DNA of 64,000 bases from Takakia lepidozioides (lineage: Eukaryota > Plantae > Bryophyta), in the NCBI GenBank assembly GCA_030704615.1, contig CM060731.1:45260001-45324000 (forward strand). The letters are read 5' to 3'. This document shows positions 13,947 through 47,576 of this stretch, in pieces (positions within the stretch are counted from its first letter, which is position 1; each line of letters begins with the position of its first letter). Made by a program: the position numbers and the translations under genes. The notes below the pieces were generated by a model. The model searched no databases. It was not told the origin of the DNA and saw only the letters and a program-made list of their open reading frames with translations.

Positions 13947-15112
13947 TAGGACACGCGTCTCGTGGTTGTTATGCCGCAACCTCTTGAGCAGTACTCCCTG
14001 CCTGCTCAGTCAATGACAAGGCCTCATCTTGCCCCATCATCTCATCCTTGAGGACCTCCTCAACCCAAGAAGAATCCCCAACCTCATCCATCACAGCCGC
14101 CTTGGCTGCCAACTCCCTCTGAACCTCGAGCACCTCCCACGTGTGCCATGGATGTCTACACCCCGTGGTCCTCACCGGCTTGCCCCCACTCACTGCCTGT
14201 ACCATCTCGGTAGGCAGAGAGACCGTCAAGGGAAGTGCACTCCGCACTCTACGTTGCTTAGTCATAGCCAAGCTGATAATCCAGGTCAAGCAATTGAGAT
14301 CCATCGCTTGCCCCAACACCTGACGACGTGATGCCTCAGAAAGAGAAGACACCGTCATGGTCCCAGTGGAAAAACCCATAGCCCGCTCTCGCTCGTCGGC
14401 ATTAGGCTCCACTAACTGCTGCAACTGAGCATCCCACAGAAGGCCAAGTCCACTATCCCGGAAAACATGCGATCCTGGGAAGCTGAGCAGTGTAGGTAGT
14501 GCTGCTCGTGGTCGACCCACCTTGTTGACCACTGCCAAAGGCGAACGGTCATCGTGTCTCACACGCTGAGACTGCCTCTCTGTATCATTTCGTTGCTGGA
14601 GGCGCAGGATTTGGAGCGGGTTGGCTCTCTCTCTTTAGGGCTATTTGTGCCCCTCTCTCTTTGTTGTTTCTTTTCCTTTTGTCCCTTCAGCTTCCCGCAC
14701 ACTTAGTACCATTTCATTTTATTTCTGTTCAAAATGCCAAAATGCTATCCAGTGTGAGGTGTGTTGGCCGCTGCACCACATCAAATGCACGCTTAAGCAG
14801 TGCGGGTGGCATCAAGTTAGTCCACCATAACCGTGGACGATGAGCCCGTGACCCCACTGCAGCTGCATCCAGCAACACTGCTGGCCCAAGCCACGACCGG
14901 ACTTGATGCACACTGGCCATCACCCTGGCCCGAGAATTGCCCATCAGTGGCACATTCTCCAAGATGTATGCTGGAGATACAGCTTGATAAAGCTGTAAGT
15001 GGTGCAAAACCCGCACCATCTCCCAAAATAGACCCGACCTCGAGTCTCGCAATCCATTGCTATGCCCGGCTGATGAATGCCCTTAGCAAGGCCAACCTGC
15101 CACTACCAAATC
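13947..15112 (-). pseudogene. Relic of the retrotransposon-borne DNA cytosine methyltransferase domain (third family copy)
   Basis: Highly similar to 26026-27032; DLVVAGWPC*GHS, AYILENVP, SRAHRPRLWWTN, VEPNADERERAMGF...RRQVLGQAMD; interrupted at ~14586-14725. Confidence 0.9.
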
Positions 15113-15809
15113 AGAGAGACAACTGTTTGCACTTTGTACTTGCCCCCGAATTTCTACTGCTCTCTTTGATGCCAGCGAATGTCATGGATACGTCGGTACT
15201 AAGTTGAGGAAGAAACTTGATGAATGAAGATTGAAATCTACATAGACTAGTACTACTGTCCCACTACTGTGCAGGATAAGTTTCTTGAATGCGGTGTTGT
15301 CTACATAGAGTCCACAGGAGACATTTGAACTGAACAGACAATGGTTGGGTTGCAATTTGCTGGAGATGTTGGCAGTTACCTCTATCTACCGTGCGCTAGC
15401 TAGCCTATATCTCAAGATATTTGGATCTAATGTGCTGCACTCATCTCGACCCTTGCTTCCCTATTGATCCATTGTGTTCAGCATCCAGATCGTGGTACCT
15501 TGTCTGCATGGGGTACAAAACAAGTAACCACGATCTGGATGATGAACCCTGATGAATCGAGGGTCGAGATTAGTATAGTACATCAAACAAACTTAGTGCA
15601 AATAAGACTGTGGTTAAACCAGATAGGATTTGACCGTGGTAAAACCTGTAGATCACTATGAGTAGTTAAACTCAGAAGAGACCTGAAGACCTACTGTCGC
15701 GCTCGTTGTCAGTTTTCAGACTGCTCTCTTTCCCACGCCTTCTCTGGTGGCCCTGCACTCACATGATCGCTGCGCGAGTAAGCTGCGTTGCAGAGGTCGA
15801 TGACGAGTC

Positions 15810-19393: not shown

Positions 19394-22300
19394 TCAAGGG
19401 AAATAACCTTCCCCACAAGAACACACCCCATTGTTGAAGTGATGAAAGCAGATGGCATCCCTTGCAATAATTTCTCGTGCAACAATTTTGGATATCAACT
19501 TGGTGCGAGTGTGGCAGTCCCCACATACACATAGGTTTTTAATGATGCGGATAGGGGTCCTAGGGGGTGTGCTAATGAGCCCAAAAGCTATGGCCAGCTC
19601 GTTGTGGTGGTAAAGAGCCTGTTCCTTCATCTGCTGATCCACATCACGCAACACAAAGCGTGTCTCAGGCACATATCCCACCTCCTTAATCTGCCAAGTC
19701 AATCTCTCTAACGCATCATATATCTCCTCTGCTTGTGGGTGAGATCTATCTCCAATGGCAAATGTATACATCTTGTGATTCCACCTTGAAAATACATTCT
19801 GCAACACACTCTGCTCTACATTTCCATAGATTCTGCAGGCACCAAGCAAGGCCCCCCACACTGAAGCACCTGGTTTGAGTGCCATGTTGGCAATGAAATC
19901 TTCTTCATCCAAGCGCCCAACACACCAAGGAGGTCAACCATGCAGGTGCAATGCTTTTCTGTTGGTGTAATGCCATGCTCTTGACACATGGATTGAAAAT
20001 AATGACCACCTTCATCTACAAGGCCCAATATGGCTGCATGCAGAGAAAACACCAATAAATGTGACCTCATTTGGCTTCACACCAGTTCAAACAGTTGGAG
20101 AGCCTCGTGACCACGCCCATGCTGAGCGTATCCTACAATCATCGCAGTCCATGAGACCACATCTGGTTTAAGAATTTTGTCAAACACCTCCCATGCATCC
20201 TCTACACTCCCACATTTGATATACAAATCAATGAGGGCATTCCTGACGTAGACATCTGACTCACACATATATTTGATAATATAGGCATGGACCCACTTGC
20301 CCTATTCCAGGGATGCTTCACACCCTCTCTTTGCATTTGTCGAAAGAGTTTGAAAGCCTCCTCACCATGACCACTCCATGCACATCCTCCAATCATCACA
20401 GTCCATGAGACCACATCTCGCTTAGGCATTCTGTCAAACACATTGAGTGCATCCATCACACTCGTGCACTTGCAATACATACTGACAAGGGCATTCCCGA
20501 GTCCAAACATCTGACTCAAATTCAGTTTTGATGATGCTGGCAAGGAGCTGCTTGCCCAGTTCTAAAGTTTCCGGGCAAGCACAAGCATTGAGGACATTAA
20601 TAAAGGAGACAATATCTGCCTTCATGCCTTCTCTTTGTATGCGTTGAAAGAGTTAAAAAGACCATGACCATGTTGAGCACATCCTGCAATCATAGTAGTC
20701 CATGAGAGCCCATCTCGCTTGGGCATTGCACGTCAAATCCTCGGGTGGCATCCGTCAAACTCTCACACCTGTAATACATGCTGACAAGGGCAGTCCCCAC
20801 AGGACATCCCCCTCAAGTCCAGCCTCAATGCACGCACATTTTGCATACATGTCCACCAGGGCAGTGTTCAGGATGACATCTGGTACAATTCCAGCTTTGA
20901 CAGTGTCACTATGGACCTCTTTCCCCTTTCCCAGAGCTCCCAGGCTTGCACACGCATTACAAACAAAAAGAAATGTTATGTGGTTGGGCTTCACCCCTTC
21001 GCACATCATTTGCTCACAGGTCTCCAAAGCCTCCATCCCGTGACTCCACCAAGGCAGTGTTCAAGATGACATCTGGTACAATTCCAGCTTTGACGATGTC
21101 ACCATGGACCTCTTTCCCCTTTTCCAGAGCTCCCAGGGTTGCACACGCATTGAAAGCAAAAACAAACGTTCTGTGGTTGGGCTTCACCCTTCGTACATCA
21201 TTTGCTCATAGATCTCCAAAGCCTCCATCCCGCACCCTTGTTGTGCATAGTCTACAGTCATCGCACTCCACGACACCACATCTCGTTCAGCCATACTTTC
21301 GAGCACTCCCTTTGGATTCTCGATGCACGCACATTTGACATACATTTCCACCAGGACAGTGTTCAGAATGACATTTGGTAATCTGTCAGGCATTCACCTT
21401 TTGCCTTGGTTGTCCTGCCATTGACTGGGGTCAGAGAAGTATTCATTCCACAGCTTCTCTTCATCTCTGAACATTACCTGTTTTTGGATAGTTTCCTGTT
21501 GTTACATTGGCAGTATCATGTCAAAGTCAATGCAAACTAGATTCACTCAACCAGCTAACTCACAGAATTCAACATGGAAATTTAGGGCCGATTCTGATTA
21601 GAGGGAAAAACAGGGCGAAATGTGTTGAAGAAGGGCCTTCATTAGCAGTGCCTTCATGAAGCCTTAACCCCATGGGAAGTCTGGAAATCTTCGTATTTGA
21701 AAAATGGGGCACACTAGATGTGTTAATATTTCACTGGAATGAAGATTCCAGTTCCTCGGGCACCTAACTATCAGTGGGAACAGTCGCTCCAAAACTACTA
21801 AGGTGATGCCCGCAATAGTTGAATACCATACAAATTGAGCAACTTAGGATAATATGAGTGTGCACCTGCTTTGTCACAGGGTGCACATGTTCACCAGGGC
21901 ACTGTACAATTCCAGCTTTGACGATGTCACCATGGACCTCTTTGCCCTTTCCAGGGCTGCCAAGCTTGCACAGGCATTGCAAACGGAAACAAACGTGATG
22001 TGGTCGGGCTTCCCCCCTTCCCCCATCATTTGCTCATAGGTTTCCAAAGACTCCATCACGCACCCTTGCTATGCATACCCTGCAATCATCATACTCCACG
22101 ACACCAAATCTCGTTCAACCATATTGTCAAACACTCCCTCCGCATCCTCGATGCACCCACATTTTGCATACATATCCACAAGGGTATTGTTCAGAATCAC
22201 ATCTGGTACAATTTCAGCTTTTGCGATCAACCATGCACCTCTTTGCCCTTTTCCAGGGTTGTCAGGCTTGCAAACGCACAGACCTGATGTGGTCGCGCTT

Positions 22301-22689
22301 CACCCCTTCTACCATCATTTGCTCACACGTCTCCAAAGCCTCCATCCTGCGCCCCTGTTGTGCATACCCTGCAAACATCGCATTCCACGACACCACATTT
22401 CATTCAACCATATTGTTGAACATTGCCTTCACATCCTCGATGCTCCAACATTTGGCATACATGTCCACGAGGGCATTGTTCATAATGACATCAGGTATAA
22501 TTCCAGCTCTGACAATGTCACCGTGGGCCTGTTTGCCCTTTTCCAGAGCTGCCAGGCTTGCAAACACACACAAACGTAATGTGGTTGGGCTTCACCCCTT
22601 CCCCAATCATTTGCTCATAGGTCTCCACAGCCTCCACCCCACCTATTGTGCATACCCTGCAAGCATCATGTTGCACAACACCACATCTC
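19394..22689 (-). pseudogene. PLS-class PPR protein with E/E+/DYW domain (RNA-editing factor), pseudogene, 3' part
   Basis: Repeated P/L/S motifs (NALIDLYIKCGSVEDAWEVFDKI..DVVSWTAMIVGYAQHGRGHEALQLF; GVKPNHITF..NACASLGAL), E domain (VWGALLGACRIYGN), DYW (GDRSHPQ..GYVPET..HHNELAIAFGL..KNLCVCGDCH..FHHFNNGVCSCG); many frameshifts. Confidence 0.93.
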
Positions 22690-22965
22690 TGTCGTGCGCA
22701 TACACATCACTACACAACTACATCGTTGTCCAAAACCACACAACACATGTGCACACCAAACACTAGTCTATCACTAGTCCACCACTAGTGCAGCCACTAG
22801 TCTACCACTAGGCTGCCACTAACCACCACTAGTGCAGCCACTAGTCCAACCACTAGGCTGCCATTAGCCACCACTAGTGCAGCCGCTAGTCCAACCACTA
22901 GGCTACCACTAGCCACCACTAGTGCAACCACTAGTCCATCACTAGGCTGCCACTAGTCCATCACA
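22690..22965 (-). repeat. 3' LTR (276 bp) of MTase-Gypsy, largely a CTAG-rich tandem repeat
   Basis: TGTGATGG...CACGACA on minus, preceded by a G-rich PPT; same LTR at 57912-58172; unit ccactagtgcagccactagtcca(a)ccactaggctg. Confidence 0.88.
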
Positions 22966-23225
22966 ATCGCCCCCCTAGCTGACGCTTAGGTCTCTCTAAG
23001 TCCAGGTAGCCACAAGATGTGATAGTGGCCATAGCCTCACTAAGTCCTCCACCACTGTCCCTACTACACTCAAACTCGATAGATCAAGAGGCCGGGTACA
23101 AGAGTTGCCCCATCGTTAGTCGTCGTCTTGCAACCTGTGAACTTGAGCCTGAGATCTCGGGTATTGACTCCTATGAGCTTGGCCCCCCATGTCTTGGTAG
23201 CTGCCACTAGTCATATCCATTGCCC

Positions 23226-24490
23226 CTATCCCAAGCAGTGTGGACATAACCAATCTCCATCAGGAACCCTCTCAAGAGGTGGTGTCAAGCATCCCATGTG
23301 CTAACCTCTTGAGCATCGATCACAGACCAGCATAGTGGCGGCACCACGAGCATGCCCACATAGCATGCAACGCAATCCTGCAAGTACCATTGCAAGGTTG
23401 GGATCTATCATCCCATCCACATGTGGAAGGTGACATGGCGCACAATTGCGCACATGGTCCTTCCATACCATGCCATCTCGACCCTCCATAATCAACACTC
23501 CCGAAGGAAACACCTCCCTAACCCTTAGAATCACACGTCCTGTTGTGACATCCAAGGTCGTAGGCGCTGTCTGCTGCAGACACACATAGTCCCCAGGGTG
23601 GAAACGCCGAACACCTGGCCGATATCCCCCTCCACGTATAGTGGCATACCTCAATATGTCTTGGTGTTGGGCAATAGCAAGGTTCTCAAAAGCCATAGGC
23701 ATGACCCTCTTAAACAACTCTACCCACTGGGCACATGCTCGTGTCCACACATCCGGATCATCAAGGTTGAGGACTACTGCAGCCTCCCTGTGAATAGACG
23801 TAGGCAAATCTGGCTCTCGGCCAGAGAGAAGGAAATATGGTGAGAAAGCAAGTGATGCTTGCTTGCTGAACCTGTAGCCCATGGCTAACCAAGGTACCTG
23901 AAGATCCCAATCTCCTAGGTGTCCCTTTTGCAAGCCATACTTGCGCAAACCCCTCTTCACTGTCTGAACCACTCTCTCTGCCAAGCCATCGGCCTCAGGA
24001 TGATCCCAAGAAGTGGTACGGTGGTCTATCAAGGCTTTATCACACAAAGCCTGAAACTCCCCCAAGAATTCTCTCCATTGGTCCGTGAGTACCTCAGCTA
24101 GAGCACCGAATCGGCTAAGCACACGATCCAGGAATGCATACGGAGCCCCCTCACTAGCCTTGTCAGGCAATGGAACCAACTCAATCCACTTGGAGAAGTG
24201 CTCTACCATCACCAACACATATCTGTGGTGGTGCATCGTCAGTGGCAATGGCCCTGCGAAGTCAAGACTCCACCTGTAGCCCAATCCCATGATGGGTAAG
24301 GATGCAACTGTGGTGTAGGGGCATTGAAGGAAGTACGCACCCTGTCACACACCATGCACCTAGCCACAAACTATTGCACCTCTGTGTGCATACCACGCCA
24401 CCAATACTGCCCCTACAGTAGACTATGAGTGCGTCGCACTCCAAAATGCCCCAACTCTCATGGGCATGCCGCATTAACTGTGCACGTTGT
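23226..24490 (-). pseudogene. Integrase with C-terminal PHD finger
   Basis: HESW.HFG...CMVC zinc motif, WSLDFAGP, VLTDQWREF, DGLAERVVQTVK core; CMLCGHARGAATMLVCDRCSRG*HMGCLTPPLERVPDGDWLCPHC (C4HC3), stop-free in copy 58433-58678. Confidence 0.92.
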
Positions 24491-24499
24491 GTTGGGTGA

Positions 24500-25957
24500 G
24501 GCACCATCTCCCCGTCCATCTCACCATGCCACCGAACTCCAGTGTCATCATGCTGGCTCGTGCATGGATTGCGACTCAATCCATCCGCATCCCTATTGAC
24601 CAAACCCGGTCGATGCACAACCTGAAAGTCATACTCTTGGAGTATAAGTGCCCACCGTGCAAGCTTCCCCGTAAGCTTGTCTGACTCCATCAACCACTTG
24701 AGTGGGTGATGATCCGTGACAAGAGTGAAGAGATTGCTGTATAGATAGCACCTGAAATGTGCTACGGCCCACACTGCAGCTAAGCAATCCCCTCATATGA
24801 GCTATACTTAGACTCTGCAGCGTTGTTCGAGTGGCTAGCATAAGCCACTACAAACTCTCTTCCCTCATCATCCACCTATGTAAGCACCACTCCAAGCCCC
24901 AACATGCTCCAATCTGTATGCAGCTGAAAGGGACGCCCCCTGATAGGTCGTCTCAGGATAGGTGCCGAGGTCAACCTCGCCTTGAGCTCCTGAAAAACTC
25001 GTTTTTGCTCATCTTCCCACTGCCACTCCTGGTCTACCTTGGTCAGCTTGGTTAGAACCTTTGCAATAGCACTAAATCCCTTGACAAACTGTCTATAGTA
25101 GTTTGTCAACCCCATGAAAGTTCGAACTCGGCTCACATCTGTGGGGCGTGGAATCTGTGCAATGGCCTCTACCTTAGTCTGCTGCACCCCTAATCCTCCA
25201 GGATATATCATGTGGCCCAGATACTCAGTCTGGTTGTGGAAGAATTTGCACTTCCCCGGATGTAATTTCAATCTGTGCGCTCTCAAGCGCTCAAACTCCA
25301 CCTGAAGGTGTCTCTCGTGCTCCTCCACCGTAGCACTAAAGATGATGATGTCATCTATGTAGCATCGAGCAAAGTCTATCCCTGCTAGAATCCTATCCAT
25401 GACTCTCTGGAACTTTGCAGGAGCGTTCTTAAGCCCGAATGGTAAGAACCGCCACTGATATAGGCAATCCTTTTCGTGCTCATTGATCCCCCCAAATGTC
25501 GTCTTCTGCTTGTCCGCCTCCTTGATCAACAACTGGTGATATCCGGACCGCAAGTCCAAAGTGCTAAAGACCTTGGCATGCCCAATGGCATCAAAGACCT
25601 CCTCAGGTGTGGGCATGGCATACTTATCGGACTTGGTCTGACGATTTACAGGCCGGTAATCACCGCACATACGTCTCTCCGTCCAATTGCCATAGACATC
25701 CTTCTTGGCTGACATCACCGTGGCTGAAGCATACTCTCCACCAAACCAGCCTCCCAGAGATCTTGAGTCCTCATCTGAATCAAAGACCTCTCTATATCAC
25801 TGTATCTATAGGGTCTCCGAAAGATTGGCGTGTCCGTGACCAACTCAATACGAATCTGCTGACCCTTCAGTGCTCCCAAATCCTTCAAACTGAAGGCAAA
25901 GCAATTCCTGTAAGCCCTCAGGAACCGCCGTATACGTCGTCTCTCTCCTCCAGTCAC
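24500..25957 (-). pseudogene. Gypsy reverse transcriptase and RNase H
   Basis: [55 protein letters not shown]. Confidence 0.95.
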
Positions 25958-26080
25958 AATGGGTCCAATGTCAGGCTCCCAATTGTCCTCCGTAACTGCA
26001 ACCTTAAGTCCAGCAGACTTAGAGGTAGGAGACGCGTCCCTTGGTTGCTATGCCGCAACCTCATGAGCAGTACTCCCTAC

Positions 26081-27300
26081 CTACTCAGTCAATGACAAGG
26101 CCTCATCATGCCCCATCATCTCATCCTTGAGGACCTCCTCATCCCGAGAAGAATCCCCAATCTCATCCATCACAGCCGCCTTGGCTGCCAACTCCCTCTG
26201 AACCTCGAGCACCTCCCACGTGTGCCATGGATGTCTACACCCCGTGGTCCTCACCGACTCGCCCCCACTCACTGCCTGGACCGTCTCGGTAGGCAGAGAG
26301 ACCGTCAAGGGAAGTGCACTCCGCACTCTACGTTGCTCAGTCATAGCCAAGCTGATAATCCAGGTCAAGCAATTGAGATCCATCGCTTGCCCCCAACACC
26401 TGACGACGTGATGCCTCAGAAAGAGAAGGCACCGTCGTGGTCCCAGTGGAAAAACCCATAGCCCGCTCTCGCTCGTTGGATTAGGCTCCACTGACTGCTG
26501 CAACTGAGCATCCCACATGAGGCCACTATCCCAAAAAGCATGTGATCCTGGGAAGCTGAGCAGTGTAGGTAGTGCTGCTCGTGGTCGACCCACCTTGTTG
26601 ACCACTGCCAAAGGCGGATGGTCATCGTGTCTCACACCCTGAGACTGCCACCCTGTGTCCAAAATGCCATCCACTGTGAGGTGTGCTGGCCGTTGCACCC
26701 CATCAAATGCACGCTTGAGCAGTGCGGGTGGCATCAAGTTAGTCCACCATAACCGTGGACGATGAGCCCGTGACCCCACTGCAGCTACATCCAGCAACAC
26801 TGTTGATCCAAGCCACGACCGGACTTGATGCACACTGGCCATCACCCTGGCCCGAGAATCGCCCATCAATGGCACATTCTCTAAGATGTATGCTGGAGAT
26901 ACAGCTTGATGAAGCTGTAAGTGGCGCAAAACCCGCACCATCTCCCAAAAGAGTCCTGACCTTGAGTCTCGCAATCCATTGCCATGCCTGGCTGATGAAT
27001 GCCCTTGGCAGGGCCAACCTACCACTACCAAATCAATGGAGCCAACCCGCTCCAAATCCTGCGCCCCCAACAAAGAGATGTCTGCTGGCAAGGCCTGTTG
27101 ATATCCACGAACTGCAGACACCGGCAACAACTTAGGGTACTGTTGCACCAACTGAGCAACATGGCGTAGGGAGACGCATCGTGCAGTCTCATCCCTCTCC
27201 ACATACAAGTAACGCCAAACTTGTACAGCTGCTTGTAGAACAACAGCCAATCCGGTGCTGATCCCGCCAAAAAAATCCAAAAGGCAAATGCCTTCATCCG
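26081..27300 (-). pseudogene. DNA cytosine-5 methyltransferase domain, DNMT3-like, within the retrotransposon polyprotein
   Basis: Motif I LLDFFGGIS, motif II YVE, motif IV DLVVVGWPCQGHS (catalytic PC), motif VI YILENV, motif VIII AHRPRLWWTN; motifs IX/X (ERERAMGF...RRQVLGQAMD) frameshifted here but in frame in the 13969-14562 copy. Confidence 0.92.
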
Positions 27301-27689
27301 GACACTGTCACACGATCGGTATGGTGTCCAATGGTGACAAGTGAGGTGGTCCTGGTACAATCCCCGCACTGTCCTCTTCTCCTGATGGTACAAAAGCCTC
27401 TACCTAGGCTTGTTGCACATGACAATCAGCGACCCGCTGCAAATCCTTGCTCGAGCCCCACAATGGAGTGTGAGCAACCATGGCAGACAACTTTGCCATA
27501 CCATACATGTCATCATGCTCTCCCGGAGGTGTCACATCCTCTGAATGAGCATTGCCCTCAAGCAACTCTCTAGGCCAACTCACTGCAGCTGTGAATGCTG
27601 CCAGTGTCGGCATCTTGCCTCGCTGGGCAACCGCAACTCCTCCTATGAACGTCACATGGAGCTGCACACGTCGGCTCTCCCCTGACTAC

Positions 27690-28141
27690 CATCCAGGCCT
27701 ATAGGAAGCTGACTCCTCTCAAAAATCCAGGGTGAAGCCCATGGAGTACAACACTGCCCCACCAACAAGGACATCGTACGAGACCGCGTCTGTCACAATG
27801 GCCTTGGCTCTCATCACTGAGCCATCTGTAGGATGATCTGGCTGTAGTCTGATAGCCAACTCACGTCGTGTCATGCCCCGAGCCTGCTCTTATTCTCCCA
27901 GAGATGTCTGTATCTGGAAAGGGCACGGCTCCATATCCGCCTTCGTGAGGCCCAAGCCTGCAATAGAAGCTCTGCCCAGCATCAATGGCTGAGCTCCCGA
28001 GTCCAACAAGACTCGCAGTGGCCGGTACCTCTTGCCTGCCGGTCCACTCAAACAGAAAATGTAATCCTGGTTGTCTAACATGACAACTCCAGGTGTCACC
28101 ATGGCGCGTTCAATGGCTGGCCCAGCTGGCAGCTCCATCAA
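27690..28141 (-). pseudogene. Retroviral-type aspartic protease
   Basis: RVLLDSGAQPLMLG and downstream YDVLVGG. Confidence 0.85.
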
Positions 28142-28872
28142 CCTGGCAGCTGCAGCTTATCATGGCGCCGCCGTGGCAGTCTTGACCCTCACACTCGAGG
28201 ATCCCTCCGGCACTACACCTCCCACTATCTCCGCAGAAGATGAAGTAACCTCCCCACTCTCACAAAGTGTAGCTGCTAGCCTAAACACCTTAGCTGGTCT
28301 TACCCCCGGCGTCGCAATTAGGGTAGCCGAGAACAATGGAGCCTGGCACACAGTTGTGGCCGCCCCCAGCAGCATACTAGCTGCCGTAGCCTTGGCAATA
28401 CTAGGTAGTGGTGCTGCCCGTGTAGCTCTCCCCGATGGCATAGTAACCTCTGCCTCGGTAACAGTCGTGCAAGAACTAGGTGCCATGGATGGTGTCGACA
28501 CTATCTCCGCCAATGTAAATGACTGAGGAAGCCTGGCCTGACGGCTTGCCTCCCCACGTTGTGGATCCAACTCCACCTCCGCACCCCGTGGCTCAGGAAC
28601 TCGTGCCGCTCCTCGAGTCACTACCGCAGTTGACTCCACTTGCACTAGTGGTAGTGCTGCCCCGCTCATAGTGGTAGTGGTAGTGGCACCCCTCACTAGT
28701 GGTAGTGGGGCCCCCACCATAGTGGTAGTGGTAGTGGCACCCCTCACTAGTGGTAGTGCTCCACACATGAATCCCATGCCTCCTAAGTCTCATCCCTCAT
28801 GAGCAGGAGGTGGACCATCCGGCCTTGGAGCCGGTACCACTTGAGCTGTGGCCATGGCAGTGAGTCTCTGTT

Positions 28873-30306
28873 CTAGCTGCTGAAGCCGGTTGGCCATGCC
28901 TTGGTCACCACCCTGACCTCCACGTCCTTGGCCATGTTGAGCTTGCCCTTGGCCTGCACCTCGTGCCTAGCCAACTCGTCCTCTCTGGGCTGCTCCACCT
29001 TACCCCCGGCCACCATTGTTCCCTTGGAACTGGCCTGGGTGCAAGGGTGCAAACCATAGCACTGGGCCTCTCCATGCCCGTACTTGCCACAATGCCCACA
29101 CTGCAACTGTGTAGGCTGTGCCTGTGCCAAACCATTGCCTCCCTCTGGGCAATCCTTCTTGACATGGGGTCCTCCACATGTCCAGCACACCACATCCGCC
29201 CATTGTTGGCTAGCAAATGAAGGGAGAGACCCCTGCATCTGAGGTCCTTTCTGCCCTTCCCTGGGCTTCACCTAAGCCCCCTTGTTGCCTTGAGCACGTT
29301 GAGGTAGTGGCTCGCTAGGAGCATCACTACCCCGTGGTGCCTCCTTGCAAATCCCACCATGACCACTCGTTCCTCCACCATGTTGAGCTCTATCCGCTCT
29401 GCCAGCAAAAACACATTTGTCAAGGTAGATTGGGCCGCTTGTAGGAGAATTGCATCCCGCACCCTTCTCCTCAGCTCCTTGTCCGATATCCCATACCAGA
29501 ACTGGACTGCCTGAGCCTCAGTAACCCCTTGGGTTACATTAATCAAGCGCCTCATGCGAGTGAAAGCCTCCCTCAAGCTCTCAGTAGGCTTCCGTTGGAA
29601 CTCTTGCAAGCTCCTCAACTTCTTTGTCCTCACCCCTTGGTAGTTCCTTCTCAACTCTTCGAAGAACTCCACAACAGGGTTGAACGAAGGCACCGCCACT
29701 GGTGCTGGTGCAGCAGTAGCTTGGGTGGATGTCGTAGTTGTTGTACCACTAGTCCCACTACTGCTCATGGAAGCTGCTGTTGTATTGTTGCTGCTGGTGC
29801 AGCTGCCGGTGTGGTTGCTGCCCTTGTGCCTCTAGTGCCTCTAGTGATGGAGACATAGTCGGGTGACCAGTACACCTCCACTCCTCGATCTCAACATCGT
29901 GCCCCCGCCTAAACTCATGGTAATCATTCATGGGCGGCCCCTCAAGGTGCTGAAACAGCCCCTTCCATGCCATGAAAGGCGTAAACAGTTGTGGATTGCG
30001 CATTTGCTGCAAGTCACACCAACTATCAAACTCTTGGATAAAGTCATCCAACTCAATGGTGCCCACCGCCCCACAGTACCTTCGTGGCCCCTTGGTGGCT
30101 CCATACATCTCCTCCATTGTGTCCCACAACAATGGCAAGGAAACTACTTGCACCGCCTGTGTGAGTCCTCCTGATTCACAATCCGAATCAGAACCTTCCG
30201 TAGAAGACACATGAGGTGAAAGTGGCCTAAACCGCATACCTCGTCTCGTATACCCGCTAGTATCGTTAGTGCTCATACCGGCACTTTCCCCAGCAACGAG
30301 TGGCAC
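28873..30306 (-). pseudogene. Gag with two CCHC zinc knuckles (frameshifted)
   Basis: LDDFIQEFDSWCD, FQRKPTESLREAFTRM, CWTCGGPHVKKDC, CGHCGKYGHGEAQC. Confidence 0.85.
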
Positions 30307-31312
30307 CTCCGTGTTGACAAACTGATACTCAGCCGGTCATGAACATGTCCCTAACCCCCTCTCCATAAGGTAACCGGGTAGAGAACCTGATGCGGCTTAT
30401 GGTTTGGAATACTAGGTTCCTAACATAGCTTGCACCTGCACCTGCATCCACCGCAGGCACTCCTATGGTTGGCTGGTCTTCACCTCCAACCTCACCACAG
30501 GAGAAACAAAGATGGTCTGACTGGTCATCAACCCAGCCTCACCATCGACAGCATGCTCTAGGGTTGGATAGGCGATCAAGCCCGAGTCAACCACCTATAA
30601 AATCAAGCGCCCACACAAAACTAGCATGGCGCACAATCAAACATGCAGGTGTGGATCCAAACACAAGAATGAAAACAACAACTCCCCCACACCAAAAATC
30701 TCTCCATAGTGTCGCTCCGGCAAGGATACCCCAGCCCAAACCCGGACTGACTCTTGCCTCCACCTACGGAAAGGTCTCGGCCTACAGAGAAGGTGAAAAG
30801 CTACGAGGAAGGGAAACTAAAGCAATGCCTATCCCCAACACGCTCTCATCCCAACACCCTCTTTTTTCCTCTCTTCTCTCATTTACATGACCATGAGAGC
30901 ATCCTGTAGACACTCCTCAAACCGCCCTCCAAGAGCTCATGAAACTTGGCCTCCAAGGCCCCATGCAAGCCTCCACAGGGTCCGCTAGTGCCTCCTTACG
31001 TCTACCAGCCATTCCTCAGAATGGAACCACCTCAGGAAACCACACCATTCACTGAAGGTTCAAAAATGGAGCAAATAGAGGTACATATAGGCCCCAACAA
31101 CATTATGTCCAAAGGAATTACCTGCAGGCTGGTCTCCCCCATAGTTAAGAACTGGGCTGAAAACCCGAAAAAATTACCTGCAGGGAAGTAATCCCCTTTG
31201 TTAAAACGCAACAGGGAGGCAATTCCGACTTTTCTGCCGGATCAGCTAGCTCAAAAGCGTTGTTCTTCAGAGCCCAGCCTCCCCATCAAGGTCCCACGAA
31301 ACGAGTGAAAAA

Positions 31313-31314
<2 letters not shown>

Positions 31315-31359
<45 letters not shown>
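31315..31359. repeat. 45-nt poly(T) tract in the element leader
   Basis: Direct reading. Confidence 0.95.
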
Positions 31360-32911
31360 CACTCTGCCTGGTCGCGGCCTTCCATGGCTCCAACCGCCAC
31401 TACTCCTCATGGCCCGCCCTAGGCACTCGATGGCCACGGGCTGCCCAGTGATACCCCGTGGTACCACTCCCACGAGCCTTCACGGCCCGCCTTCCCCACG
31501 ATCTGGTCACCGTGCCCACCCGTTGTGTCCGCACCACGACTTCCAACGGTCACGGTCAACCATCACGACCTGGGCTCGTGGTATCTCGATACCGCCCCAA
31601 TGGCCCATCACGGCCACTGTTCTCTGTGTTCCCTGGAACTCCCAACGAGTTCCCATGCGTTCCCGAGGCGTTTTCGAGGCGTTCCCAAGCTCTCCCCGAG
31701 CTGGGGTTTGCTCCTACACCTGCTACCGACGAGCTATGGCTTCTGCGAAGCCACCAGACTTGTTGCCATGCTCTCTTGGTCTCTCACAACCCACCAGAGG
31801 TACCCTAAACTCAACAAATAAGCAATATGCTGCCCAACAGGCTCCATTTTTTCATGAAGCTCACAAAAAACGAATCTAAAAATACACACCTTTACAAACT
31901 TGGTGCACCTGCACTTCTCATGCATATCCCCTGGCTCTAGGGCGCCTCATTGCTGCCCTTCCTGCCCCACTCTTGCCACTCTAAGAGCCCTTACACTGCT
32001 GAGTTTCAGATTGAAACTCCAACTCAGCACATGTTTCACAAGTGCACTGATTTGCATACAAGAGGGACCAGCCCCCTCTCTTCACTCATACCTCTTTATG
32101 AGCTTAGAGCTGAAGCTCCCAACGGGCTGCGATGCATCCCCTCGCACCTCCACCATTTGACTGCTCCTCGTCTATCCGCAACAACTAGTTTCGGGCAGAA
32201 GTACCTGGAGATGATCATATCATCTCCAACCTGCAACATGCTAGCTTCCCATGCGCAGCCCAAATTTCTGCAGCTCTTTAACTCGCCCTGCAGCTGAAGA
32301 AGACGACCACCAGTTCGCCCACTCGTGGCTAGCATCTCCTTCGTTTCACACTAGAAGCCCAAACTTGGTTGTCATAGCGTTGAGCTATGCAACGCCGCTC
32401 TTCAACATAGGCTACCCGCCTCTCTATCCATTGCAAAACCTGCAACCTGTTCGCCTTTGTACTCTATCCGCTTTGGATAGGCTCATGCACGGATCCTTGC
32501 ACTGCAGGCTGAACCGTTTCTCATGATCTGAAAACACAAGTGCTACAACTAACTCGAACCTGGCACTCACAGACTCGAGCTGATCTTTCTCGAGTGATAA
32601 GGAAAGGAATGATACAAGCACACAAGCTCTCTCAAACTCACATACTTGCACATGAAAACATCACTCATATATTAAGCCGAGTCAAGTGCACCCCACGCCA
32701 TGGGAAATCCACACTACGGCGCCATAGTTAGACGCGGTGAGGCTCAACTCGAGAAAGATGAGCCCACCGCGATCTGCCGTGAAGATAACAATGTCAGGTG
32801 CCCAAACATGTATTGGTCCCTGGATTGACACTTGGGTCAATCCCAAATATCAATATATAAAAGTTAGCTATTTTCTAGCTAACTTCACATTAGTGGTAAA
32901 ATAACTTGACA

Positions 32912-33598
32912 TTTCGTTCAGCCATATTGTTGAAAACTGCCTTGCATCCTTAATGCACCCACATTTGGCGTATATGTGCACCAGAGCAGTGTTCAGAATG
33001 ACATCTGGTACAATTCCAGCTTTGACGATGTCATCATGAACCTCTTTCCCCTTTTCCAGGCTTGCACACATATTGCAAACACAAACAAACGTGATGTGGA
33101 TGGGCTTCACCTCTCGTGTGCACCTGCTTTCCAGCTTCAAGGCCTTTCATCTTGATGCACTTATGCAAGAGACAGACATACATATCTGAATCTGCTGAAA
33201 TTCCTCCTTGGTTTAAAGTCTGTAGAGCCTCTTTTAGTCTGTCTGCCTCACAAAACATCTTCACATGCCCAGAAGTGCCAGAAGAGGCATTGTGGACTCC
33301 CTCCCTTGATCCTCTTCCAGAAGTTGTGGTCAGGGTTGAGGTGCCTGATTTTATCAACTGTGCCGTCAACTGCTGCCTTTAATTGACCATCTACGCATGC
33401 AGGTTTCTTGTAGCTATTGATCCACAGGAAATCATACGTAATATTATGCTTGAAATCTGGCCCTCTTCGATATCTGGACCCACGCTTTATCCCTTTTCCT
33501 TCAGCTATCCATGCCTCTGCACAAATCATACATTCATCTTTGCCCTTGCTGCTAGCAGCTGACAATGACAGCCTAGATTTGTTCTCGGAAACACCCAA
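32912..33598 (-). pseudogene. 5' part of the PPR-DYW pseudogene
   Basis: MFCEADRLKEALQTLNQGGISADSDMYVCLLHKCIKMKGLEAGKQVH; PDVILNTALVHIYAKCGCIKDARQ; rejoins 22689 across the insertion. Confidence 0.85.
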
Positions 33599-36001: not shown

Positions 36002-38340
36002 TGTTAGTGTCCGCATTTCATTGTTTGATGCAGCTACTTCTATCTATGCCCAAGAAGTGAAGAGGAGTTGAACCCTTTTTTCTCTATTTTTCCCTTCGTT
36101 TAGCATTTGTTTGGTCTGGATCGGAAGTCGATTGTTGATATCTTTTCCGTCGCTCATCATTTAGTTTCTCATTTTAGTTTTATTGTCTTGATAAAAATAA
36201 AAATAAATAATTGTCTTTGATATCGATAATCGTTTTCAATGTTTTACACAGTTTGTTCAAAGATTTACCAAACTACGGTTGTAATATGCTCAAGTTTATA
36301 ACGTTTCCCATTATAGTGATTATAATTCTCTTCCAAGAGGAGAGGGAGTTTGGCTCTTCAGACAACTTCAAACTGGGTAATTGGAAGTCCAGATTCATAA
36401 GTGCCAAGTTTACAAGGGATTGTTTATTGTTGATTACATCCTAGTGGCTTGCATGTTTTGAGAAGGAGAGGCTCAAAAAGACTTTTCTCAAGGAACTACA
36501 ACTCTCTTCAGCCTTTTTGCTTAAATACAGTGCAAGAACATCTTTTAATGCATTCCATAATTTCTTTGAAGGCCTTTACCACCAGAAGTCTGAAACAGTC
36601 TGCGAAAAGATCAGACCAAGGAGGGCCCATACATTGAAGAATATAATACTCTCCACTAGAGTGTCTCTCAATCTTTGAAAACCAGTTGTGTTCATGAGAA
36701 GATATGATGTCGCGCACCTCACTTCGGTAAGCTCCCCTTCAAGTCATAGTTACTCGCTTTGATGCGCGCGCCTAACTCCCAACCTGGCCGCCGGGCCAAC
36801 TCGGAGCTTCGGCTGCTCACCGGGACATAACGGTCCCCCTTTCTTCCCCCAACAGACCCTCCACCAATTTGGGCCTAGTGGAAATTCCCTTTGGTAGATG
36901 GCAGTCCGGAATAGCCCCCCATTCCTTGGTCGCTTTCCGGCTCGCTCGTTTACTCACTAGTTTTTGGTCACCAACGGGCTTGCACCGTTCTCGGGATTAC
37001 TACTCCTTATATATACTTTTGTGACTATCCACGGGGGTTTCACAAACAACCATGCCATTTTATGGTGAACCACCACGAAGACCCTTGATTCCCGGTGATG
37101 AGTCACGGTGAGTCTTGGCCCACCCACCACGGCCCCATTGGACCGTGGTGAGTCCCAAGACTCCCCACGACTCCCACCACAAGGTCTCCGCCCCATGGTG
37201 AGTCCTATGCCACCCCCACTAAGTCCCACTAAGCTACCACCACCCCTTGTGGAGCCACCCCCACCGCAACCCGGTGTGCGGGGCTCCACCTAGTGAGCGC
37301 CTCTGCCTCCTTGAGTGCCCAAGGCACTCAAGGGTGCTTCAGCCCCCCATACCTATTGTTGCCACCGCCCCCACCACAGGGGCAGCCCCTCTGCGTCCCG
37401 ACCCCCTGCCCTCAAGGCAAAGGGCCGCGACACACACCCCTATCAACAGGGAGTCGATGTCCTCATCGACTTGTCCATTTTGTAGAAACGAACATCCAAG
37501 TTGTGGCGTCCCACATCAAGGAGTTTGTTTCCGTACCATGGCGTCCCATGGCAGAGAACCAAACCCCCACTTGACTCTACTCTCTACTAGCTAGTTTGGC
37601 CGACTTTCTCCAAGTCCCGGCCAAGGGTGGAGCCTCTCAAGCTCCTCCCAGTGCACTCTTCTTGGCCCACTTCAAGGCCAAGGAACGATCCTCCCCGAGG
37701 ATCGAATCGCCTTACTGCAACAACCTTTGCTTGCGACCGCTCGTGATGCCACTTTTTGGCATCACCTTGAGCAAGGGTTCACCTTGAACCCTTTTTTACT
37801 AGGAAGATAACCTTGAACCAACCGTGCGCCCCAATCACTACAATTGGGTCCGCCTTGGAATGCTGGCCTGAGGTACGGGAACACGCCGAAGCCGCACTAT
37901 GACTTCGTCCCGAGGCTACACGATTATAATACGTGAATGGAGGCACGTAGCTTCTGCGTTAGCCCGCAGTACAAGGAAACCCCCTCGGTAGCGCAGTTAT
38001 AGTACGCGCACACGCCAGGTGCACACTAGCACGTGAACTCCCAAAGAAGGTGCAAGTTTCCTTGCCCCTTGGGTGGGAGTCACCCGATTTCGGCACTGCG
38101 CAAACACACGATTAACCCAATTTACCTCTCTCACTTTTGTAAGGTAGCATGCATTCTACACACTAGCCAACCATACCATGCATCACCATTCCAAACAAAA
38201 TAGGAAGCACAACATTTGGAAACCATTTCATTTATAACAAAATTTGTACAGTACAAGTTTTTTTGCAATCGGATTCCTGAGCTAGCTAAGCCGGGCTAAG
38301 CATGCATTTCCTCCCCCACGCTCCAAGGTTGATGTCCCCA

Positions 38341-41300
38341 TTAACGTTTCTTCCGCTTTTGAGGTCGCTCTTCGAAAGCTGCAACCGCCTCGGATGCGTT
38401 TCCCATTTCTGAGGCACGCACCCAAGATGCCTCCACATGATGATAGCCCTTCCATTTCACGAGATACTCTGTTTCTCGATTCTTGAACCGCCTCGACTTA
38501 AGCACTGCCTCCACCTCGTACTCAGGTTCATTTTCATGATCCAACAGCACATGTGGCGGACGCAACACTTGATGCCGATTCGGAAGCGCTTCATCTTTGA
38601 AGTAAGGCTTAAAAAAGGAGACGTGGAATACCGGATACACCTTGTTGTTTGCCGGCAGCTCCAATTCATACTCCTCCTCATTCATAACCTTCCGGATGCG
38701 AAAGGGTCCCGCATACGAAGGTACGAACTTCGGACTCACTTCCGGAGGTAGTAAAAAATTCTTGATGTTCAACCAGACCTCCGTGTCTGCCTCAAACTTG
38801 ACTTCCCTCCACTTCCGATTTGCCTGCCGTTCATACCGTTTCCTAGCTTTAGCGATGTTGTACTTTGCGAGCTTCAACAAGTGCTCGCGTTCCTCCAACA
38901 CCGCTGCTGCTGCCGGTTCCTCAACGTCTTGGGCAGCCCAACTTGTCGGCACTAGAGGTGCTTTTCCATAGACCAATACAAAAGGGGAAACACCCGTTGC
39001 GGAGTGTTTTGTGTTATTATAGCAGAACTCTGCCGCGTCCAAGTGCTCCACCCAGTCCGATTGGTCCGCCGATACGTAATTCCGCAAGATCTGCTTCACC
39101 ACGGAATTCACCCTTTCCGTTTGGCTGTCCGTCGTAGGTCGGAAGGCGGTGCTCATCTTGAGCCTCGTCCCCATCTTCTTCCAAAGTGCCCTCCAAAATT
39201 TACTCGTAAACTTTGGATCGTGGTCCGAGACAATATCCTTCGGGAGTCCATGATGCTTGAGGACGTGGGCGAAGTAAAGTCGCCCCGTCTCTTGTGCCGT
39301 TGCCGTCTCCTTGGTGGGGATGAAATGGCCCATTTTACTGAACCTATCCACCACCACCATGATTGCATCAAATCCTTTTGACAGCGGCATAGCAGTCGTG
39401 AAATCCATCGAGACACTTTCCCAAGACCCCTCTGGAATTGGCAAGGGTTGTAACAGCCCCGCTTGCTTTTTGTACTCGCTCCGGTTTTGTTGGCATGTGG
39501 TGCATGTCTTGACATACTCCTCGGCCTCCTCCCTCAGTTTGGGCCAGAAATACTCTTTCTTCAAGAGTGCCGCGGTGTGCTTGGCTCCGCCGTGGCCCGC
39601 AAGCGGACCATCATGGCATTCTCCTAAGAGACTATCTCTGATCCCTCACTTTAGCACGTAGAGACGCTTTTGCTTGTACCGGAGCACTCCATTTTGCAAG
39701 TGGAATTGCGATTTAACCCCCATCCTCAAGTCCCGCATCACGGACTTCGTCATCTCATCCTTCTGGTAAGCCTTCCGGATCTTCCTTTGGATCGCCGTCT
39801 CGCCCCTGTACACCATCATGAGTTGCTGCTTTCTACTTAAAGCATCGGCCACCACATTGTCCCGTCCCGGTTTGTACTGGATATCCACGTCGAACAGTGC
39901 CAAAGTGTCTTGCCACCTAATTTGTTTTGGGGACAACTTAGGCTGCGTGGCAAAATACTTCACCGTGACATTGTCCGTGAACACCTTCACCGGGTTGGAA
40001 CCAATATAGTGGTGCCAAAGCTCAAGGCAATGCACCACCGCCTTCATTTTCTTTTCATGCGTAGGCCACTGTCGCTCTACTTCATTAAGTTTCTTACTTT
40101 CGTAAGTCACTGGACGTCCATTCTGCATGAGTACACCTCCTATAGCGAAGTCTGACACATCCGTATGAATCTCAAATGGACGGTCGAACTCCAGGATTTT
40201 GAGGACTGGAGCTCACGCCATCCCCTGCTTCAACTCGGCAAAAGCTTGACCACAAAAGGTGTTCCATACCCAGACTTTGGATTTACACAGAAGGTCGGAC
40301 AGCGGCCCCGCGATCTTGGCGAAATTTCTCACATACTTCCGGTAATATGATGCGAGTCCCAGGAAGGATCGCACTCCTGGGACCGAAGTCGGAGGCTCCC
40401 AGTCCAAGATCGCCCTCACCTTTCTGTCATCCATTTTGATCCCATCCTGTGTAATCACATGCCCCAGGAACTCCATTTTTGTGACCCCGAATTCGCACTT
40501 TGAAGCTTTGGCATACAGTTTCCCTTCCCGCAATTTCTGGAACACCCTTTTGAGGTGCTCCAGGTGCTCTTCCTTTGTTTTCGAGTACACCAGTATATCG
40601 TCGATGTATACGATCACAAAGTCATCCAACCACTCCTGGAAAAGGCTATTCATTAGCGTGCTAAAGGTCGCGGGTGCGTTGGTGAGCCCAAAAGGCATCA
40701 CCAAGAACTCAGACAAACCATATCTTGTCTTGCACGCGGTCTTCTCCTCATCTCCTTCCACCACTCGGATCTGATGATACCCGGAGCGCAAATCGATCTG
40801 GCTGAAATACTTCGCTCCTGCCAATCGATCGAAGAGGTCGTGGATCCTTGGCAAAGGGTACCGATTCTTGATAGTCACCTTATTCAGGGCCCTGTAATCG
40901 ACACACATCCGCAACGTCCCATCCTTCTTGTCTGCGAATAGCACCGGGGCTCCGTAAGGTGACTTACTCGGCCAGATGTACCCCTTTGACATTAGATCCT
41001 TGAGCTGAGTCTTCAGCTCAACCAACTTTCTGTGGCTCAACCGGTAGGGCGCCTTGGCAGGCGGTTCTGATCCCGGCATCACCTCAATCTTGTGGTCAAC
41101 TCCCCTTCGCGGTGGCAAGCCGCTTGGTAAATCCTCTGGCATCACATCCTGGTATTTCTCCAAAATCCCCTTGATCCAATCTGGGCTCGGCTCCCCATCG
41201 CCTTCTCCCTTCACTTGTCTTACATAAAGCAAAAAGTGGGGCTCGTGTGATTTCTCCACGGCCCACTCCCTTGCTAACAGAAGGTTTATTTGCCATCCCA

Positions 41301-41679
41301 CGGGGTTGGGCGTTTCTGACACTCGTAAAACTTCGCCACCATTCCCACATGGTAGCGTGACTACTCTCTTGCGGCCATCTATAACCGCTCCGGATCTGCT
41401 AAAAAAGGTCATCCCCAAAATGAGTTCCACTCCATCGATCTCGCAAATGGTGAAGTTCTCACGTCCCTCCCAACTCCCGAGCTGAAGAGGGACATCGAAC
41501 GCCAACCTCGTCGCCAATTGTGGTTCTCCTTTAGCAGAACGCACCTCAATAGAGGCCCCCACATCACTTGTCGGGAGTCCTAGCTTCCGTGTCGTTGCCG
41601 GTGTCATGAAGGAGTGCGACGCTCCTGTGTCCACCAACAACAACATGTTAGTTCCGGAGATTATCCCACTCACAAACAT
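38341..41679 (-). pseudogene. pol: protease-RT-RNase H-integrase-chromodomain (few lesions)
   Basis: [49 protein letters not shown], chromodomain EYEVEAVLKSR..YLVKWKGY..SW. Confidence 0.95.
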
Positions 41680-41691
41680 TAATTGACTCCC

Positions 41692-42904
41692 TTATTGCAA
41701 GGCGTCAGTTTCCTGATACAACTCACAAGAGTAGTTGCCTACCTTGCAAGTCTTGGCGACCACCGCCTCCACCAAGCGGCTGATGGAAGCTTCGGACAAC
41801 TCCGTGGTTGCCCGAGTCATGTTCAATTGTCGGGGATTCGTACACTTCTTGGCCATGTGCCCGGGCTCCCCACAATTGAAGCACACTCCATCGAAGGTCG
41901 CCTTTTGTCGGCCATAAAGCGTCGCACTTGATTTTCCTTTCGGAGCATCGGGTGTTGTCTTGGCGTGTGAAGGCCCTCCCTTTGATTTCCACGTGCCATT
42001 GGAGCCGCGTGGCCTATCCCACTTCTTTTCCGGTCGAAAGGAGTCACCCTCCCTCCGGGTCTTCTTGTGGTTCAGCTCCGTACGGCCTTGTCTTTTCGCC
42101 CCTAGGGACATCCGAGAAACATTCAGCCCTCTCAATTGCCTCGTTCAAAGTCTTAGGTGGCTTCTCCTCCAACTTCCGCCTGGCCCATGGGGCCAGTCCC
42201 GCCACAAAGTTGAAGACCATTTCTGGTTCTGCCATGTCCGCGACTTCGAGCAACAACACATTGAAAGCCTGAACATATCCCCGAATGTCATCCGTTTGCT
42301 TCAGATTCCTCATCTTGTCCCGGGCGAGCCAGGACGCGTTGAGGGGCACAAACTATCTCTTCATCAGTTCCTTGAACCCACTCCAGTCCAAGGTTTCCGG
42401 GTTTGGACCTCGGTCATGAAGGCGTTTCTGCCACCATTGTTGAGCATAGCCCCTCAAATAGGTGGGAGCCACTTCCACCTGATCCTCGTCACTCAACTTG
42501 GCCGCCCGAAAGTACTGCTCTAGCTCCAAGAGCCAGGTGTTGAGTGCCTTCCGATTTTGGACGCCCTCGAAGGTGTCGGGTTCCTTAGGCTTCACCTTAA
42601 ACTTTGCCTTAGTGGAAGTGGCATTAGTCGCCTTCAACACGTCTTTCAACGTCCCGCCAAACTGCGCCAACAACCCTTCCCAAAAGGCTGCTGGCATAGG
42701 AGGCATCTATTGGTCTGTCGGAGCTCTCAGAGATTCCTCGGGCTCTGACTCCTCAGATTCCTCCCGTTCTTGAGTGGCCTCATTTTCAAAAGCATGCATC
42801 GCTTCCTCAAATGGCCGCTTCGGTGACACGTCGCCCCCATCGGGCTCACCAAGATCATCATCTTTCGGGCCGTTCCGCTTTTGCTTTGGCTTGCCCGACC
42901 CCAT
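41692..42904 (-). pseudogene. gag with CCHC knuckle
   Basis: PKEPDTFEG..LNTWLLELEQYF..YLRGYAQQWW; CFNCGEPGHMAKKC; stops and a frameshift. Confidence 0.9.
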
Positions 42905-47568: not shown

Positions 47569-47576
47569 TATATATA
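47569..47576 (+). promoter_or_regulatory. TATA box of 5' LTR
   Basis: tatatata conserved in all three LTR copies (~6431, 47569, ~52896), ~25 nt upstream of the PBS-complementary motif. Confidence 0.7.

Follow-up and report, generated by a model that had tools for sequence, protein, structure and literature searches.

Gypsy retrotransposons that carry a DNMT3-type DNA methyltransferase (MTase) are already published as a kind. KnitGypsy-Dnmt3 of the alga Klebsormidium nitens has DIRS-like repeats, a DNMT within the open reading frame (ORF) of the reverse transcriptase (RT) and a Ka/Ks below 0.2 (de Mendoza et al., 2018; PMC5890265; this and the other papers are cited from the accessible parts of their text). 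The authors' review reply gives its repeats as A1 and A2, with a B repeat on each side of A2 (PMC5890265). The species table of the same paper has rows for Physcomitrella and Selaginella and, in its accessible part, none for Marchantia or Sphagnum. A 2025 survey has two embryophyte rows, Arabidopsis and Physcomitrella (PMC12344493), and a 2026 preprint mentions 'streptophytes (Gypsy-DNMT3)' (10.64898/2026.05.21.726589); three further papers serve as context only (PMC10952607, PMC12885004 and PMC9477723). Here, we describe a decayed element of this kind from the bryophyte Takakia lepidozioides, found in a stretch of 64,000 nucleotides of contig CM060731.1 (the window).

Like KnitGypsy-Dnmt3, the Takakia element and its relatives combine Gypsy domains with an intronless, unrearranged DNMT3-like domain that is under purifying selection between lineages, and the relatives have A1-B1-A2-B2 repeats. 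They differ from it in their hosts, which are land plants, and in a conserved stop between MTase and RT in the subclade of the window. The original prediction, made from the letters of the window, had proposed this kinship and knew of no land-plant equivalent. Both points are supported; no land-plant report of Gypsy-DNMT3 was found in the literature, with Repbase and subscription journals outside the search. Nothing on readthrough, self-priming, the junction or the target duplication was found in the accessible text on KnitGypsy-Dnmt3 (PMC5890265), and no account of the stop, primer or junction was found in the literature, although the figures and main supplement for KnitGypsy-Dnmt3 may already show them. 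The host range is wider and the replication design looks undescribed. We incline towards reading the element as a dead land-plant Gypsy-DNMT3 copy with the MTase in a Gag-protease-MTase frame, a readthrough frame for RT, RNase H, integrase and a PHD finger, and an internal junction cut by the integrase.

The element is of Gypsy type, spans 10.2 kb from 32911 to 22690 on the minus strand and lies mid-repeat inside a decayed DYW-PPR gene. Its features, in the direction of transcription, are as follows.

22690–32911, minus strand: whole element in the short A-ORFs-B form, ends TGTCA...CGACA, decayed.
32596–32911, minus strand: repeat A at the 5' end, putative promoter and R-U5 part.
32747–32759, minus strand: predicted self-primer (putative RNA 5' end), 13/13 nt complementary to 32583–32595.
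32583–32595, minus strand: predicted primer-binding site (PBS), not tRNA-like, complement of 32747–32759.
30340–32582, minus strand: long 5' untranslated region (UTR) with a 45-nt A run at 31315–31359.
29020–30117, minus strand: Gag with two CCHC knuckles (29149–29187 and 29059–29100), frameshifts and stops.
27560–28090, minus strand: aspartic protease (PR), LLDSGA at 28009–27992, frame shared with the MTase.
26378–27298, minus strand: DNMT3-like C5 cytosine methyltransferase, motifs I–X, unrearranged, intronless.
26042–26050, minus strand: conserved in-frame amber stop and CAR-YYA hexamer, predicted readthrough signal.
24499–26008, minus strand: RT and RNase H (RH), YIDD at 25361–25350 (PF00078, E = 7e-31; PF17917, E = 2e-16).
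23480–24457, minus strand: DDE integrase (INT; PF00665, E = 7e-10), about 105 codons gone before its zinc finger in this copy.
23235–23369, minus strand: PHD finger that closes ORF2, interrupted by one stop in this copy.
22970–22979, minus strand: predicted polypurine tract AGGGGGG, directly 5' of repeat B.
22690–22969, minus strand: repeat B with a ~45-nt tandem array, ends CGACA.
22686–22689, minus strand: 3' copy of the target-site duplication, one transition apart from its partner at 32912–32915.

The boundaries 22690 and 32911 that had been proposed are thus the true ends, and the colinear order gag (two zinc knuckles)-PR-MTase-RT-RH-INT also holds, with the PHD finger following the integrase. 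The earlier reading as a Gypsy retrotransposon was right as to the domains but did not recognize the split repeats at the ends and mentioned neither the self-priming site nor the PHD finger. The copy had been called decayed and it is dead: compared with natural relatives, it has several frameshifts, and stops number about a dozen in ORF1 and four in ORF2, in addition to the lost codons.

The motifs of a C5 methyltransferase are present at the places noted before, on the minus strand and without introns (LLDFFGGIS at 27283, GWPCQG at 27019, ILENVP at 26887, AHRPRLWWTN at 26767, ERERAMGF at 26474, RRQVLG at 26408 and GQAMD at 26392). The set is complete but not intact, as two compensating frameshifts put motif IX of the window copy in a different frame from motifs I–VIII and X. 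The ORF at 26081–27307 matches PF00145 (E = 7e-11, 42.6 bits, cut-off 22). The proposed resemblance to DNMT3 was borne out by a profile built from 20 relatives, which ranked DNMT3A first in the PDB (4e-21), followed by DRM (5e-10), HaeIII (1e-7) and HhaI (2e-6). A model of the natural relative P0003 (pLDDT 92.7) matched DNMT3A/B in Foldseek (E = 6e-20) and DNMT3B in VIA-align (Z of 29.1, r.m.s.d. of 2.7 for 279 aligned), with M.MpeI second (25.6); a first model, which ended before motif X, had a pLDDT of 68. Motifs, profile and fold support a DNMT3-type enzyme, for which catalysis is predicted. Across the 80 loci compared, the catalytic Cys is kept in 78 and the Glu and Asn of ENV in all 80; RXR is also conserved among relatives. 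The domain comes without the DUF3444 part that is present in the host-type DNMT3 P0080.

The ratio dN/dS of the MTase is 0.11–0.21 in the eight pairs with finite dS that are either between lineages or intact, and that of the protease is similar; one pair with a decayed locus gave 0.30, and in one saturated pair the ratio is undefined. These values indicate that the MTase is under purifying selection between lineages and is not evolving neutrally. Several points weigh against an active, selected enzyme. Within decayed families dN/dS is 0.45–0.78, and it is 0.70 between the window copy and a relic elsewhere in the window, which fits decay, as expected, and is not proof of recent selection. The CG content of the element is low (0.47), but that of the neighbouring PPR relic is likewise low (0.36). 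The Klebsormidium DNMT gave no methylation in yeast, a result that its authors regard as inconclusive (PMC5890265). CG depletion was rejected as a footprint of the enzyme, being inseparable from age and host methylation; the copy and the relics differ about equally often at CG (28/182) and CHG (36/242) sites and less often at CHH sites (42/900).

MTase and RT share one reading frame and are separated by a conserved in-frame stop at 26050–26048. Among the 64 loci that reach this site, 63 have a stop there (43 TAG and 20 TAA) and 60 continue with CAR-YYN, against a background in which stops at 313 MTase positions average 1.4% (maximum 27%). The loci are mostly of one family, and the weight of this evidence therefore rests on the separate lineages. 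The hexamer reads CAACCA in the window and L001, CAACCC in the main family, CAGTTA in L067 and L068 and CAATCA in L069, and the lineages carrying these four spellings are 45–65% alike. Locus L067 has 1369 open codons before the stop and 1047 after it, all in one frame, which by Pfam encode PR-MTase and RT-RH-INT-PHD, respectively. L001, L067, L069 and the window copy have no Met ahead of the RT N-terminus. Many relatives end 91–100 residues past motif X, and the Marchantia ORF1 proteins (1278–1281 aa) end at the conserved stop; in deeper relatives such as P0097, P0099, P0107 and P0283, MTase and RT are fused without a stop. The stop at 26081, the first after the MTase, was rejected as the ORF end as it is absent from the relic.

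After UAG, CAR-YYA is the readthrough signal of tobacco mosaic virus (TMV), with 20–32% readthrough in one plant reporter study (PMC2754532), and this context is also treated in PMC2194720. The element resembles TMV-type UAG-CAR-YYA, SIRE1, Tca2 and murine leukaemia virus (MuLV) in having an in-frame stop with a CAR-YY 3' context (PMC2754532, PMC2194720). It differs in that its stop follows the protease and the MTase and does not lie at gag/pol or pol/env. On the strength of the codon pattern, RT-RH-INT-PHD is very probably produced by readthrough of the conserved stop, and the MTase likely ends a Gag-PR-MTase ORF1 and would be made at the Gag level in this subclade. The earlier suggestion that the MTase is cleaved from Pol is not supported in that form; MTase and Pol are indeed in the same frame, but with the stop between them in nearly every locus. 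Counting against readthrough are that strict CAR-YYA occurs in just 5/64 loci, that the 80 loci collapse to 66 distinct groups, mostly one family, and that the hexamer of the commonest family ends in C, with an ATG 6 nt past the stop.

The window copy contains no long terminal repeat (LTR) pair or other end-to-end repeat. The relatives have the form A1-ORFs-B1-NN-A2-B2 (complete in L040, L062 and L070, of which L062 and L070 are one insertion, and cut in L015) or the short form A-ORFs-B, which is found in seven of the 11 two-ended loci. Apparent LTRs in L015, L040, L047, L062 and L070 were rejected as ordinary LTRs; they are A1 and A2. The element is thus like Ty3/Gypsy in its PR-RT-RH-INT order with a DDE integrase, its TG...CA ends and its short target duplication, and unlike Ty3/Gypsy in having no two direct LTRs around the ORFs and, in the relatives, split repeats. 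These A1-B1-A2-B2 split direct repeats are shared with PAT, Ngaro and TOC (PMC4157794), whereas the DDE integrase and the 4-bp duplication set the element apart from the tyrosine-recombinase elements DIRS, PAT and Ngaro; Pfam finds rve and H2C2, and no tyrosine recombinase, in the two ORFs of L067. Of the ten testable loci, seven have an exact 4-bp target duplication, two have one with a single mismatch and one has two mismatches; none has an exact 5-bp duplication. No exact duplication has a central CG, unlike the NCGN insertion preference of Phygy (PMC6317226).

Where B1 meets A2, the true ends face each other in the junction CGACA-NN-TGTCA, which is seen in six loci of three lineages with NN being GC (L015, L062 and L069), GT, AT or TC; junction matches in L030 and L035 were false and were dropped. 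The B repeats are 115 nt long and 91–94% alike. The joint between A2 and B2 is visible in two insertions and is not the same in both, with 17 nt of filler in one of them. In circle junctions of IS3 and IS911, a pair of att sites facing each other across a short spacer is cut by a DDE enzyme, and a model of integration through the 2-LTR circle junction was reportedly put forward by Panganiban and Temin in 1984. The junction here is like that model in its head-to-head att sites, short spacer and predicted DDE cut, and unlike the retroviral circle junction, with its 4-base spacer and since-dropped model (PMC11054761), in that its 2-nt spacer is templated in the repeat.

A predicted polypurine tract (AGGGGGG) is kept at the equivalent place before B1 in L062, L067, L069 and others, and repeat A stops directly 5' of the PBS in the window as it does in L062, L040 and L067. 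The putative RNA 5' end, placed from sequence, is complementary to the PBS in three of the five regions tested: 13 nt in the window (0/200 shuffles), 16 nt in L067 (0/200) and 10 nt in L015 (3/200), with different letters in each of the three lineages. In the main family the primer stretch lies ~30 nt past a TATA box. A second fold tested pairs the primer and PBS arms with a z of −3.4. The element probably self-primes without tRNA, a reading drawn from these complementary arms. In this it would be like Tf1, Tj1 and Tcn1, in which the primer site is complementary to the inferred RNA 5' end (PMC4600332, PMC6317226); Tj1 also has an in-frame polyprotein stop, but at the end of Gag. These three elements have ordinary LTRs, and unlike them the present element has a PHD finger and MTase and no chromodomain on the integrase. 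The case for self-priming is weakened by L062 and L040, where the 5' A contains no perfect complement of at least 9 nt, by the window repeat A, which has no clear TATA at −30, and by the minimum free energy fold of the window, in which the arms are paired but which is weak (z of −1.8). At L067:8823–8856 and in repeat A of L062 the predicted primer forms the 3' arm of a hairpin with its 5' arm upstream of the putative RNA start. Because the 5' arm precedes that start, the primer would be masked within the 3' copy of A but available at the 5' end of the RNA.

These features suggest the following cycle. The RNA would start inside repeat A, and its first ~13 nt would fold onto the site past A and prime reverse transcription without tRNA. 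Most ribosomes would halt at the stop, giving several-fold more MTase than RT and integrase, at the level of the capsid protein, and the protease would free the MTase within the particle. If purine tract and primer site have their customary roles, their positions would bound a linear cDNA with terminal repeats B-NN-A, with the true ends inside it as GACA-GC-TGTC. The integrase would cut after CA on both strands to give recessed ends with 2-nt overhangs, as in the processed ends of retroviral integration intermediates (PMC11054761); the 4-bp duplication itself is seen. End-joined cDNA with one cut would give the replication-competent A-ORFs-B-A-B. A second cut, a circle with one repeat or recombination between B1 and B2 at a later time would give A-ORFs-B, the dead-end form of the window copy, which should not replicate because it has no downstream A. 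As the least certain step, the MTase would methylate the new cDNA before insertion, probably at CG, so that copies arrive pre-marked, and the PHD finger would guide target choice. From the arrangement of the repeats we consider it fairly probable that the integrase cuts an internal junction, while a circle in particular as the substrate is a possibility that we hold with some doubt; methylation of the cDNA is, by a cautious judgement, the preferred main job of the MTase.

Counting against the junction model are that the junction is seen in relatives only and not in the window's own family, that the end-joining argument rests on two insertions, with very few independent long copies, and that the four main-family junctions include no permuted form, which a symmetrically cut circle should produce as well, L067 being ambiguous (possibly an assembly collapse). 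The ends might instead be made during reverse transcription, by template jumps from one split repeat to another and a programmed stop at the junction, with a linear A1...B2 trimmed normally; readthrough would be kept, and A-ORFs-B would come only from B1/B2 recombination after insertion, for which the B repeats are long and similar enough. Retroviral integrases use linear DNA and the circle model was abandoned for retroviruses (PMC11054761), which speaks for this alternative together with the missing permuted form. It is nevertheless unlikely in our view, since neither the purine tract, which precedes B1, nor the primer site, which follows A1, lies at a true end, three lineages share the 2-nt spacer and its palindrome, the joint of A2 with B2 is variable and the short form is frequent for such a short repeat.

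The stop might also be an ordinary ORF1 end, with RT-integrase made by splicing or reinitiation, as the ATG that the commonest family has 6 nt downstream and the splicing over the stop in some Marchantia gene models (P0060 and P0061) would allow. The two models remove different stretches, however, and look like annotation fixes; the ATG is missing in four other lineages, and frame and CAR-YY are kept, which makes this explanation distinctly improbable. The MTase domain could also be kept for binding (as a DNA or RNA chaperone or a silencing decoy) or act in trans on host chromatin instead of on its own cDNA. The inactivity of the Klebsormidium domain in yeast (PMC5890265) favours such a role, and high expression would permit action outside particles, but the conserved Cys, ENV and RXR argue for catalysis and the missing DUF3444 part also counts against it; we rate it as rather unlikely. 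The idea that a fragment of a host DNMT3 was captured once, or that the insertion is nested, found nothing in its favour and is refuted by the recurrence of the same arrangement in dozens of loci and several named genera, by the position of host-type DNMT3 far outside the element rows in the tree and by the purifying selection on the MTase, and the earlier claim that the MTase is a heritable part of the element stands.

The named relatives with 50–75% identity, carried on contigs as long as 47 Mb, belong to Marchantia polymorpha, Calypogeia fissa and several Sphagnum species, and the occurrence in land plants is therefore independent of the host of the window. More distant relatives occur in Closterium, and a Coleochaete transcriptome contains a matching RT-RH-INT-PHD ORF; chlorophyte hosts are not claimed, as the RTs of Haematococcus, although members of the wider group, have no MTase match. 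The RT and MTase trees (FastTree, SH-like support only, read without a donor or an order of events) both place the window next to liverwort and moss-type rows. The RT tree, which is without named reference lineages, assigns the window to a PHD/MTase group that is separate from the chromodomain rows. The phylogeny proposed in the original prediction was realized in part: host-type DNMT3 is included and lies far outside, but K. nitens rows are not, as no match named Klebsormidium was among the relatives found. A library-wide search gave 497 clusters (E < 1e-30); in the best 150 of these the MTase follows RNase H or directly precedes the integrase in 82, follows the protease or precedes RT in 18 and stands alone in 50. 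The RH-MTase-INT rows form one branch (98%, FastTree). This larger sister group, RT-RH-MTase-INT-PHD (P0148, P0175, P0280, P0290, P0296 and others), makes up 87 of the 160 rows of the MTase tree.

The Marchantia Gag-PR-MTase ORFs P0057, P0262, P0263, P0269 and P0270 (1278–1281 aa) are labelled hypothetical proteins; these ORF1 genes are Mp4g09160, MpVg00370, MpVg00540, Mp5g06330 and Mp5g06860, and several cluster members lie on the V chromosome. P0079 (1770 aa) has a related MTase ahead of RT and RVT_3/RNase H, unlike Gypsy, and possibly belongs to another retroelement class. The family member P0215 is filed at NCBI as an uncultured cyanobacterium and probably derives from a contig of a plant or alga that was binned with bacteria. 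In other groups, Gypsy-7a_cRei of Chlamydomonas likewise has a PHD finger in a Gypsy polyprotein, but it has LTRs and no MTase is listed for it in the accessible part of the Chlamydomonas v6 preprint. EpiLTRs likewise carry a DNMT in an LTR element, but theirs are DNMT4-related and accompanied by DAM and a chromodomain (10.64898/2026.05.21.726589). Nothing on methyltransferases or PHD fingers was found in the accessible text of the REXdb paper (PMC6317226).

Two relics in the window had been taken as recurrences of the family.

57912–60488, no strand assigned: family relic comprising the 3' end with INT-PHD and, after it, inverted and deleted pieces, without the part equivalent to element 26026–27086.
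13947–15113, minus strand: relic equivalent to element 26026–27080, most of the MTase and the conserved stop.

Both are pieces of the same family, and the 22690 end of the element is found again exactly at 57912, but they are complementary, with breakpoints that agree to within 7 nt at both ends. They thus look like one shattered copy and count as about one further copy, not two. The pieces lie 44 kb apart, with microhomologies at several joints, and the joint 25336–25894 is also present in contigs from two runs.

Among the remaining parts of the element, Gag matches PF03732 below the cut-off (E = 3e-4) and gives a tblastn match to Marchantia P0057; Pfam matches to the protease are weak in the relatives, and the PHD finger (PF00628) is found with an E of 3e-11 in the relic at 58436–58696 and of 3e-10 in L067. 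The last 19–35 nt of repeat B match the B end of L062. The 5' UTR is ~1 kb longer than in the L062 family; contig depth is about tenfold lower over 31064–32507, which may be variable UTR or an inserted piece, and over repeat A it exceeds that of the adjoining UTR. From one run, 98,886 contigs map to the region with a very high summed depth, which is not a copy number, and the run may itself be where the window comes from; the depth marks the region as a high-copy repeat. An Rfam scan of 22000–33500 gave no matches.

19394–22689, minus strand: 3' part of the host DYW-PPR pseudogene, which resumes at 32916–33120 past the element.

This pseudogenized E+/DYW PPR gene is followed by more PPR debris to ~35500. 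Its DYW clusters are dominated by Streptophyta, and together with a UGT motif the gene marks the host as a land plant. The window further contains a fragment with a UGT motif (HCGWNS) at 2158–2350, a young chromodomain Gypsy element at 36707–43581 (LTRs 96–98% alike), a further Gypsy element at 6331–7679 and 47284–53132 (LTRs ~90% alike, plus a second relic), a Copia-type RT fragment at 57333–57812 beside the relic and an array of 9-nt GT-rich units at 61184–61454.

The DNMT3-carrying Gypsy elements are thereby extended from one alga to land plants, including the model liverwort Marchantia, and the question raised in 2018, what a transposon gains from carrying a methylation writer, becomes testable. 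Having no LTR pair, such elements would be missed by LTR finders, and gene callers would count their enzymes as host methyltransferases. Tentatively, and with more doubt than attaches to its parts, they may represent an old and widespread Gypsy branch of the green lineage that combines internal-junction integration, tRNA-free self-priming and a DNMT3 loaded by readthrough at capsid stoichiometry, so that every copy would be methylated. If the junction model is true, they would be a naturally occurring example of a retroviral-type integrase that works through an internal junction, and would link LTR and split-repeat elements.

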